Source: Nitrospirota bacterium
Lineage (GTDB): Bacteria; Nitrospirota; 9FT-COMBO-42-15; HDB-SIOI813
DNA length: 41,847 nucleotides
NCBI GenBank assembly: GCA_016217665.1
Contig: JACRHF010000025.1
Span: 1-41,847, forward strand
Direction of reading: 5' to 3'
The translations under genes were made by a program, and so were the position numbers. This document shows positions 5,260 through 5,746 of the stretch, piece by piece. Positions within the stretch are counted from its first letter, which is position 1. Each line of letters begins with the position of its first letter. Below the pieces are notes generated by a model that was not told where the DNA came from, did not search any database, and worked only from the letters and a program-made list of their open reading frames with translations.

Positions 5260-5457
5260 ATGGCTACCCCCGAGAGTATTTCCGATGCCATTATCGATCT
5301 GATGGAGAAGCAGGGACAGTTGACCCTGACCGAGGTGGAGACGCACCTGGGGGTCTCTTACAACCTCGTAATTCTCGACATCGACCGGATGGTGGAAAGG
5401 CATCTCCTAACTCTCGAGCGGCAGGGGACGGATTATGTCCTCTCCCGGGCGGCATAA
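5260..5457 (+). CDS. Small winged-helix-like protein (65 aa), first gene of the nif transcript
   Basis: Strong RBS AAAGGAGGT before ATG 5260; IIDLMEKQGQLTLTEVETHLGVSYNLV…IDRMVERHLLTLER has a wHTH pattern. Confidence 0.7.
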   Translation: MATPESISDAIIDLMEKQGQLTLTEVETHLGVSYNLVILDIDRMVERHLLTLERQGTDYVLSRAA

Positions 5458-5458
5458 G

Positions 5459-5659
5459 ATGTGTGTATCGATGGTCTGCATGGATTGTAAAGTCAAGGTG
5501 GAACTGGACAGAAAAGGCAGCGCCGGCATCTGCGACGAGCGGATCATCAGCGAGATCGTGGAGAGTATTGGCCAGGTCCATCATGGTTCGGTGGAGATCA
5601 AGATCCAGGATTCCAGGGTGGTCCAGATCGACACGCTGGAGAAGCGGCGGTTGAAGTAG
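5459..5659 (+). CDS. YezD/DUF2292 (OscA-like) small protein
   Basis: EIVESIGQVHHGSVEIKIQDSRVVQIDTLEKRRL is the DUF2292 signature; start codon uncertain. Confidence 0.8.
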   Translation: MCVSMVCMDCKVKVELDRKGSAGICDERIISEIVESIGQVHHGSVEIKIQDSRVVQIDTLEKRRLK

Positions 5660-5705
5660 CGATGGAATAAGAAGGCGTAAACGGAGAGGCTGACCAGCCA
5701 ACTGG

Positions 5706-5746
5706 AGGCCGGAAGACGCGAAGAAGCGCTTCCGGCCTTTTTATTT
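5706..5746 (+). terminator. Intrinsic terminator/attenuator between the leader genes and nifH
   Basis: AGGCCGGAAG(ACGCGAAGAAGCG)CTTCCGGCCT followed by a T-rich tract; the 5' arm overlaps an upstream hairpin at 5688..5710. Confidence 0.75.

Follow-up and report, generated by a model that had tools for sequence, protein, structure and literature searches.

The stretch of DNA considered here, which we refer to as the window, is a 41,847-nt contig (C111) from a Nitrospirota bacterium, whose metagenome-assembled genome measures 1.7 Mb and is 77% complete (genome G000 in our labelling), and our subject is the leader that precedes its nitrogenase gene nifH. On the + strand of this leader, a gene for a 62-amino-acid protein of the DUF2292 (YezD/OscA) family (5471..5659; Pfam PF10055; alternative in-frame starts at 5435 and 5459) is followed after a spacer of 28 nt by a conserved 23-nt hairpin (GGCUGACCAGCCAACUGGAGGCC, 5688..5710), a candidate antiterminator, and then by a predicted intrinsic terminator (5707..5746) made up of a stem-loop at 5707-5737 and the U-run UUUUUAUUU at 5738-5746. 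After a further 56 nt comes nifH itself (5803..6684, +), which is recognized by Fer4_NifH in Pfam (E 7e-133) and by TIGR01287 (458 bits, over the cut-off) and is the first gene that this arrangement would gate. The reading frames, the hairpin and the terminator had been picked out in a preliminary description made from the sequence alone, and every one of them was found in its place.

The hairpin and the terminator compete for the same nucleotides. The former (GGCU-GA-CCAG-CCAA-CUGG-A-GGCC) folds as ((((..((((....)))).)))) at -10.6 kcal/mol, and the GGCC at 5707-5710 that supplies the 3' strand of its outer helix also provides the first four bases of the terminator, where it forms the base of the stem adjoining the U-run. 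The terminator folds at -24.6 kcal/mol (z -5.6), a value reached by 0 of 200 shuffles, and with a G+C-rich stem of 9+3 bp directly before UUUUUAUUU it has the predicted features of an intrinsic terminator; a simple terminator scan gave no match at 5707-5746 because the stem has a bulge. The idea that the two structures are mutually exclusive is thus borne out by the shared GGCC, as well as by the recurrence of the same logic at most of the terminator-bearing relatives described below. Since the terminator is much the more stable of the pair, the default state is, on the calculated energies, termination. In a 104-nt fold an A-rich segment (5664-5676) pairs with the U-run, and this segment is not conserved in the homologous leader of a relative (locus L003 of genome G023). 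A bidirectional terminator was ruled out, there being no U-run on the reverse strand.

Upstream of these elements, a sigma54-type -24/-12 promoter-like site (TGGCACACCTTGTGCG, GG-N10-GC; 5194..5209, +) has two mismatches to the 16-nt consensus. It is backed by its position, and equivalent GG-N10-GC sites precede three homologous leaders (L003, L099 and L122). About 110 nt 5' of it, an exact match to TGT-N10-ACA (5070..5085, +), the consensus of NifA-type sites, is a possible enhancer-binding-protein (EBP) site and a lead only, the pattern occurring 7 times in the window against 4.7 expected. The first reading frame of the leader (ORF1; 5260..5457, +) encodes a 65-amino-acid orphan that had been called a small winged-helix protein. 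Its start is preceded by a good AGGAGG ribosome-binding site. The winged-helix-like similarity is weak, all Pfam helix-turn-helix (HTH) matches being sub-threshold (best HTH_DeoR, E 0.005), which is a weak point of the leader observation. A word-indexed search returned no relative of ORF1 but itself, an exhaustive one returned 13 distant small representatives at E<=1e-3, and the homologous leader L003 has no counterpart.

According to the promoter scans, which covered the sigma70 and sigma54 consensus, and to the list of open reading frames (ORFs), the terminator lies, as had been proposed, between the only recognizable promoter and nifH. No sigma70-like site was present on the + strand in 4400-7000, and no sigma54-like match fell between 5747 and 5802. 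Because nothing promoter-like separates the terminator from nifH, we suggest on these sequence grounds that nifH depends on read-through from the leader.

The preliminary description held that a similar motif follows DUF2292 genes elsewhere. A regular expression, a covariance model and a sample of 80 loci all indicate that such a motif is indeed present and that it is widespread. Among the first eight relatives, the same hairpin lies 3' of the DUF2292 gene whether the next gene is nifH, sulfite-reductase-like or porin-like; between these relatives CCAG/CUGG gives way to CCGG/CCGG in the inner helix, and in the outer helix GGC/GCC is replaced by AU/AU or AAAC/GUUU. Taking one genome per species gave 80 DUF2292 loci, labelled as about a dozen phyla, from which the consensus GC-UGA-CCRG-NNNN-CYGG-AR-GY emerged. 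In it the asymmetric internal loop UGA//A(G/A) separates an outer helix from the inner helix CCRG/CYGG, which is capped by a tetraloop of variable sequence. The core expression matches 50 of the 80 loci within 260 nt of the stop codon, against a chance rate that we estimate from the degeneracy of the pattern at ~0.004 matches per locus. The covariance model (R1), built from an alignment of 49 sites (A2), has a match at E<=0.01 starting 0-300 nt 3' of the gene in 57 of the 80 loci (median distance 80 nt), and at a 58th (L036, about 2628-2659) the UGA of the internal loop doubles as the DUF2292 stop codon. With both strands of the 472 kb searched, 89 of 89 R1 matches at E<=0.01 lie on the DUF2292 strand. 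The window site has the helices, the UGA//AR loop, the strand and the downstream position of this motif; it scores 34 bits (E about 1e-7) over 5683-5714 and is the only match at E<=0.01 in its genome, the window holding no second one at E<=1 (next best E 3.8).

Pair counts at 85 distinct sites, which lean towards the model structure because their alignment (A5) was fitted to it, give GC 42, AU 37, GU 4 and unpaired 2 for pair 14-21; GC 49, GU 16, AU 8 and other 12 for pair 7-27; CG 82 and UA 3 for pair 8-26; and CG 84 and UA 1 for pair 13-22, with two further pairs invariant. There is A-U/G-C covariation at one pair, and the covariation score was matched by 0 of 500 shuffles. The expression behind A2 forced T9, G10, A11, G15, C20 and A24, so that "invariance" at those columns arises by construction, and C at column 9 is fairly common in wider sampling. 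Taken together, these data indicate that the hairpin motif is almost certainly real. A kink-turn reading of its internal loop was discarded upon inspection, since the two strands give A.A and G.G rather than tandem sheared G.A. Attenuation by ribosome stalling at a leader peptide was rejected because the distance from stop codon to hairpin ranges from 0 to about 140 nt.

Two local elaborations accompany the motif in parts of the sample. Three loci (L004, L005 and L006) carry a second conserved element between stop codon and motif, GUCGUAGGUCUUAYGGCUUAAGA, which forms a small hairpin; it occurs in Rrf2, DUF2292, sulfite-reductase loci that are close relatives only, so its conservation says little. 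Porin-type loci (L007-L010 and L183) have a hairpin lacking the UGA, GGCCAUCCACACAACUGGAAGCC, about 50 nt before the canonical one, a tandem arrangement that would suit a dimeric binder. At another locus (L040, 1017-2138) the DUF2292 frame continues without a stop into porin-like sequence, leaving 374 amino acids open, which may reflect a fusion, a frameshift or an assembly error.

How the motif is connected to the genes behind it bears on what it does. A helix followed by a U-run is found at 45 of the 85 distinct sites, and in 37 of these 45 the 5' arm of the terminator starts inside the motif, mostly at exactly column 25, as in the window; in genome G071 and at locus L063 the terminator instead pairs the motif's 5' half with a downstream complement. 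At 29 sites the motif lies 15-30 nt from a start codon, and about 9 of their minimum-energy folds pair the 3' half of the motif with the Shine-Dalgarno (SD) sequence and the AUG; the remaining 20 or so show no clear sequestration, the fold holding the hairpin and leaving the SD free. The same core would accordingly act at the level of transcription and, in at least some cases, of translation, and in every case binding would turn expression ON. A census of the 71 ORFs immediately 3' returned Porin_O_P (23), nitrite/sulfite reductase (NIR_SIR; 9), NMT1-type (NMT1_2) binding proteins (6), phosphoadenosine phosphosulfate (PAPS) reductase (2), Sbp-type binding proteins (2), TonB-receptor plug domains (2), and one each of ATP-sulfurylase, a Cys/Met pyridoxal-phosphate enzyme, a CysK-like protein and NifH. 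As judged from these annotations, the regulon appears to be one of sulfur assimilation and anion uptake, to which nif is the exception.

One conserved core served by at least three platforms (3'-strand terminator, 5'-half terminator and SD sequestration) is a classic signature of riboswitches, and the genes behind it are functionally coherent. The hairpin, alone or with flanking sequence, might be an aptamer that is stabilized as an antiterminator when an ion or small molecule from sulfur or anion metabolism binds it directly, with DUF2292 co-expressed for some other job such as that of a carrier or chaperone, and the presence of the motif in a genome that lacks DUF2292 (G057, below) would be in keeping with this. 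We nevertheless think a riboswitch unlikely. The structure is very small, with 23 nt and 6 modelled pairs and neither a conserved junction nor a pseudoknot, and it matches no Rfam family. It is also tied almost wholly to a small upstream gene outside its control, which a riboswitch would not need. Moreover, the helices keep the same bases from site to site whereas the loop varies (CCAA, UUAA, ACAA, UCAU, AAAA and others), a pattern that one would sooner expect where a protein binds than in an aptamer for a small molecule. The comparison with Rfam 15 gave 0 matches at the gathering score over the window, no signal in 5640-5810 beyond noise of 15 bits or less, and nothing on the motif at E<=5 in nine loci. 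No description of the motif was found in the searchable literature under oscA, yezD or RNA-motif, sulfate and antiterminator terms, a scope outside which subscription journals and supplements fall. A sulfur motif of this kind is likewise absent from the portion we consulted of a riboswitch review (PMC7266159). It therefore appears that neither Rfam nor the searchable literature describes the hairpin or its association with DUF2292.

A different concern is that there may be no regulated switch at all: the terminator could end the DUF2292 transcript or simply leak, the hairpin could be a 3'-end stabilizer or processing site, and nifH could be expressed from an unrecognized promoter or by constitutive read-through. 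The consensus-limited promoter scans leave room for such an arrangement, the sigma54 site is statistically indistinct within the window, and the 20 or so sites near ribosome-binding sites that already fold the hairpin with a free SD would also fit. What makes this scenario quite improbable in our view is the precise placement of the terminator arm at column 25 in most sites, the conservation of the core across phyla with covariation, and the occurrence of the motif in leaders with no DUF2292 ORF to stabilize, namely a nifE leader (L099) and the second G071 site. The 56 nt between terminator and nifH, empty of promoter-like matches, argue in the same direction. We therefore regard it as quite likely, from the sequence features, that hairpin and terminator together constitute a switch that gates nifH.

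If a factor binds the hairpin, the distribution of the motif suggests which one it could be. In a first sample of 151 genomes of the phylum, PF10055 occurs in 15, and 14 of these have an R1 match on the strand of the gene, no more than about 250 nt 3' of it; in the 15th (G139) degenerate copies of the motif can be seen by eye. The window gene is the only DUF2292 copy in its genome. Four cases reached at least 30 bits away from an adjoining DUF2292 gene. One is the nifE leader of G023 (L099), where promoter, motif and terminator are arranged as sigma54 promoter-motif-terminator-nifE, in a genome that also has the arrangement DUF2292-motif-terminator-nifH (L003). Another is a second site in G071, 4 kb downstream of the first. 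Each of these two genomes has one DUF2292 gene and two switches (before nifH and before nifE in G023), which we count as support for action in trans. The match in G067 lies inside a coding region, where the R1 matches below about 26 bits also fell, and is probably false; the fourth case, G057, is taken up below. In a second sample, made up of 101 genomes from the order to which a Pseudomonadales metagenome-assembled genome belongs, DUF2292 is found in 7 genomes (8 genes) and every R1 match of at least 29 bits is in a DUF2292-positive genome. The matches adjoin the gene in 3 of the 7 DUF2292 genomes, and inspection by eye revealed CGAC-for-UGAC variants after three more genes and a degenerate copy after one further gene.

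The model that we favor can be stated as follows. A sigma54-type promoter would produce a leader transcript that encodes ORF1 and DUF2292 and runs into a strong terminator 56 nt before nifH. A factor clamping the hairpin would keep GGCC out of the terminator stem beside the U-run, and RNA polymerase could then read on into nifHDKENXB. DUF2292, probably dimeric, would itself be the clamping factor, translated from the very transcript on which its target lies a little further 3'. In most lineages this cassette would turn on sulfur-assimilation genes and anion porins by means of a terminator or a helix that sequesters the ribosome-binding site. In this genome and that of one other member of the phylum, nitrogenase would have recruited a Cys-rich paralogue, which would add a second, post-initiation checkpoint after sigma54 activation. 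Based on co-occurrence by position and by genome, we give roughly even chances to the central part of this model, that DUF2292 binds RNA as an antiterminator in the manner of HutP, from a gene lying immediately 5' of its target.

A number of observations weigh against the model, in addition to the built-in columns of A2 and the leaning of the pair counts mentioned above. By count, the sigma54-like site (TGGCAC-N5-GTGC) is unremarkable, with 13 matches in the window against 14.2 expected. At 23 of the 80 loci there is no R1 match 0-300 nt 3' of the gene. These include L036, whose match overlaps the stop codon, and four loci matched only 1.6-2.0 kb downstream; about fourteen more show weak partial matches in the usual place. 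An oscA-sbp-like locus in G232 (L188) has no motif that we could see by eye. G057 has the motif with no DUF2292 detectable by the family model or our own alignment, and it is the only DUF2292-negative genome of the 151-genome sample with a match of at least 30 bits. Its two sites form a tandem pair (L095/L184; contig C45, about 18053-18167); a terminator accompanies the first, the second lies at a ribosome-binding site, and the pair precedes an excisionase-like HTH gene in a tRNA-adjacent integrase island. At L122, a metagenome contig with a nif-type DUF2292 gene, a hairpin and terminator occupy the usual place with the UGA-CCRG core replaced (GGCUUAGCCGGCAAACUUAAGGCC). The structural model of the protein is only moderately confident (predicted local distance difference test score, pLDDT, of 71.8, and below 50 for the Cys-rich N-terminal 22 residues). 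Foldseek returned no match to it at E<=0.001, so that no solved RNA-binding fold resembled it, and a profile search of the PDB with DUF2292 gave 0 matches. Finally, the co-occurrence itself would also be expected if DUF2292 were merely the habitual first gene under the control of some other factor or ligand.

The protein has features of its own that are of interest in this connection. The window DUF2292 matches its family profile PF10055 over residues 26-61 (E 5.3e-13), its 48.8 bits lying above the cut-off of 22, and AlphaFold2 run with 70 sequences predicts a helix at 23-35 and a beta hairpin at 39-46/50-57. A homodimer model scored 0.46 against 0.02 for the best control; 20 of 30 solved homo-pairs come up to this mark, as does 1 of 23 solved single chains. 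At least 69% of contacts are shared between runs, with a partner pLDDT of at least 62 and an interface through strand 36-48. The modelling supports, rather than shows, a homodimer. Three Cys residues (C3, C6 and C22) precede the core, and the pattern C-x(2-6)-C-x(8-22)-C in this position is present in 3 of 107 distinct members, all of them in a nif context (the window, G023 and L122), and in none of the other 104. The third of these (L122, 2560-2700) stands behind a sigma54-like site with a draG-like gene next to it. This motif suggests a metal or an Fe-S cluster as ligand, and the signal sensed by nif-type proteins may differ from that of other members. The preliminary description had proposed that the switch ties nitrogenase synthesis to sulfur status; this is possible and gains no specific support from our analysis, the nif-context protein having a Cys motif of its own. 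A broader proposal joins several steps: that DUF2292 proteins are a phylum-spanning class of tiny dimeric RNA-binding regulators with the 23-nt hairpin as a portable ON switch for sulfur regulons, working through antitermination or exposure of the ribosome-binding site, and that a paralogue with three Cys was captured by nif, where its metal or Fe-S cluster may tie nitrogenase transcription to redox, oxygen or the supply of Fe-S/sulfide once sigma54 activation has taken place. As a joint claim we regard this as tentative and, on present evidence, rather doubtful. The name DUF2292 appears in just 2 papers out of about 8.4 million, and neither deals with RNA.

The use of the cassette for nif is rare. 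Although nifH is present in 53 of the 151 phylum genomes, the DUF2292-switch leader was seen only in G000 and G023, and the majority of the phylum's nifH genes lack a leader, with TGGCAC-N5-TTGCT some 50 nt in front of them. In the family of G000, nifH is missing from all 10 other genomes, and the G+C content of the nif region (window 6000-21000) is 57-60%, compared with 44-53% in the flanks and 50.6% in the genome. Because of this contrast and the absence of nifH from family members, the nif island, together with its switch, looks laterally acquired. With the window and one relative as the only instances, nif appears to be a rare co-option of the gene-plus-hairpin cassette. The nifH leaders of genus g34 (L175, L180, L181 and L182) have a different conserved leader, …GGCCGUGGAGUCGUAUACCGGCCAGGCGCUGAAGCC…, with a strong terminator about 57 nt before nifH, and are possibly another nif antitermination system in the same phylum.

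The rest of the tightly packed operon (6802..15109, +) comprises nifD, nifK, nifE and nifN, which were named from position, length and visible N-terminal similarity without a profile scan, followed by three genes assigned with Pfam: NifX-like (12640-13056, +), DUF269 (13058-13570, +) and nifB-like (13586-15109, +). Two adjacent P-II genes come after nifB (16372-17126, +) and not between nifH and nifD; the second encodes 141 amino acids with an insertion, and the pair looks like NifI1/NifI2. Further on lie a homocitrate-synthase-like gene, ThiF and a TauE/SafE anion exporter (18351-21035, +) and then an Rrf2-IscS-IscU-IscA-Fdx cluster (21883-24703, -), so that sulfur and Fe-S functions are physically linked to the nif island. 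Divergent from the nif leader is a remnant of draT (DRAT; 4857-4970, -) that retains the first 38 codons only; G023 has a full draT, plus draG, in the same position, and the window genome, at 77% completeness, yielded no further draT match. On the far side are genes for a response-regulator sigma54 activator (Response_reg, Sigma54_activat, HTH_8; 707-1939, -) and a PAS histidine kinase (2054-3148, -), a pair beside the nif cluster that is reminiscent of GnfL/GnfM of Geobacter. At least 7 EBP central domains are encoded in the genome, and none over the NifA family cut-off was detected in its 77%.

Were DUF2292 to bind the hairpin, a domain of unknown function would become a regulator class with a defined RNA target, and the unexplained phenotypes of oscA would acquire a mechanism. 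The result would be a compact protein-RNA switch, of about 60 amino acids and 23 nt, able to act on transcription as well as translation and spread over about a dozen phyla. For nitrogenase it would amount to a second, independently evolved leader antitermination checkpoint on nifH and nifE after that of Geobacter, a recurrence suggesting that post-initiation gating of nitrogenase is a solution arrived at more than once, and the Cys-rich nif-type paralogue would be a concrete candidate sensor.

Factor-dependent antitermination is well known as a class of mechanism, including for nif, and several established systems help to place the one proposed here. PyrR, TRAP, proteins of the BglG/SacY type and riboswitch platforms all work through exclusive antiterminator/terminator or SD-sequestering helices whose choice is set by a bound factor. 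PyrR and TRAP promote termination (OFF), whereas the free-energy balance at the nifH leader implies an ON switch, and the RNA and protein families are unrelated. OscA, which we presume, as the preliminary description stated, to be a member of PF10055, offers a parallel on the sulfur side. In the account of it available to us, OscA of Pseudomonas corrugata is a small protein with no assigned function that heads a sulfate-transport cluster, is co-transcribed with sbp, is induced by sulfur starvation or chromate, and when inactivated gives a sulfur-related phenotype (Viti et al. 2009, cited in PMC2996968). Such a phenotype is what would be expected of a positive regulator of downstream genes, and no RNA role is proposed in that account. 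In the Pseudomonadales metagenome-assembled genome, the order is likewise DUF2292, then the motif, then an Sbp-like gene.

The closest precedent in nif regulation overturns the view, expressed in the preliminary description, that no such control had been described for these genes, albeit with a different RNA and protein. In Geobacter sulfurreducens, the GnfK/GnfR system exerts antitermination at the nifH, nifEN, nifX and glnK-amtB leaders, GnfR binds CAGGCAANGGCGCC overlapping the terminator of the nifH leader, and a two-component EBP activates the nif sigma54 promoter (PMC2995071; Ueki and Lovley 2010). As in the window, a sigma54 promoter is followed by a nifH-leader terminator that has to be overcome, with the site overlapping the terminator 5' arm, and as in G023 the same site recurs before nifE(N). 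In Geobacter a response regulator of the ANTAR type acts in its phosphorylated form, whereas the leader considered here has DUF2292 as its partner gene and a different hairpin. This precedent raises the possibility that some other trans-acting factor, be it an ANTAR-type regulator, another RNA-binding protein or a small RNA, binds the window hairpin, with DUF2292 as a bystander or co-factor. A superficial resemblance of the window's CAGCCAACUGGAGGCC to the GnfR string is suggestive in this regard, as are the different terminator-containing leaders of genus g34. A regular expression derived from the published 14-mer gave one terminator-linked match in the genome, which was the nifH leader.

ANTAR targets (of GnfR, EutV and NasR) consist of two tandem hexaloop hairpins in which the first base of the loop is A and the fourth is G. 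The window has a single hairpin with a 4-nt, freely varying loop, and the "GCAA" of the Geobacter-like string is UUAA in L003; on these features the GnfR site was rejected as an explanation and the window switch is not an ANTAR system. A genome search with PF03861 (ANTAR) gave no match, but neither did any of its 14 controls, and a six-frame scan with an ANTAR-like signature, a weak test, gave nothing convincing in the 77% complete genome. Since, in addition, the genome-level profile of the motif matches that of DUF2292, we consider it improbable that a factor other than DUF2292 is the one that acts at the hairpin.

For DUF2292 as the antiterminator, the most instructive comparison is with HutP of the Bacillus subtilis hut operon, a small regulator encoded by the first cistron that brings about read-through of a terminator before the structural genes upon binding RNA. 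HutP is a hexamer that recognizes spaced UAG triplets and requires histidine and Mg2+; here the RNA is a defined hairpin with an internal loop, and the protein is modelled as a dimer. Searches of Pfam for HutP, of the PDB and with Foldseek (E<=0.001) gave no match, and DUF2292 does not belong to the HutP family. The analogy is one of operon logic only, and in that respect HutP would be the closest working analogue: a first-cistron regulator whose target terminator lies just downstream of its own gene.

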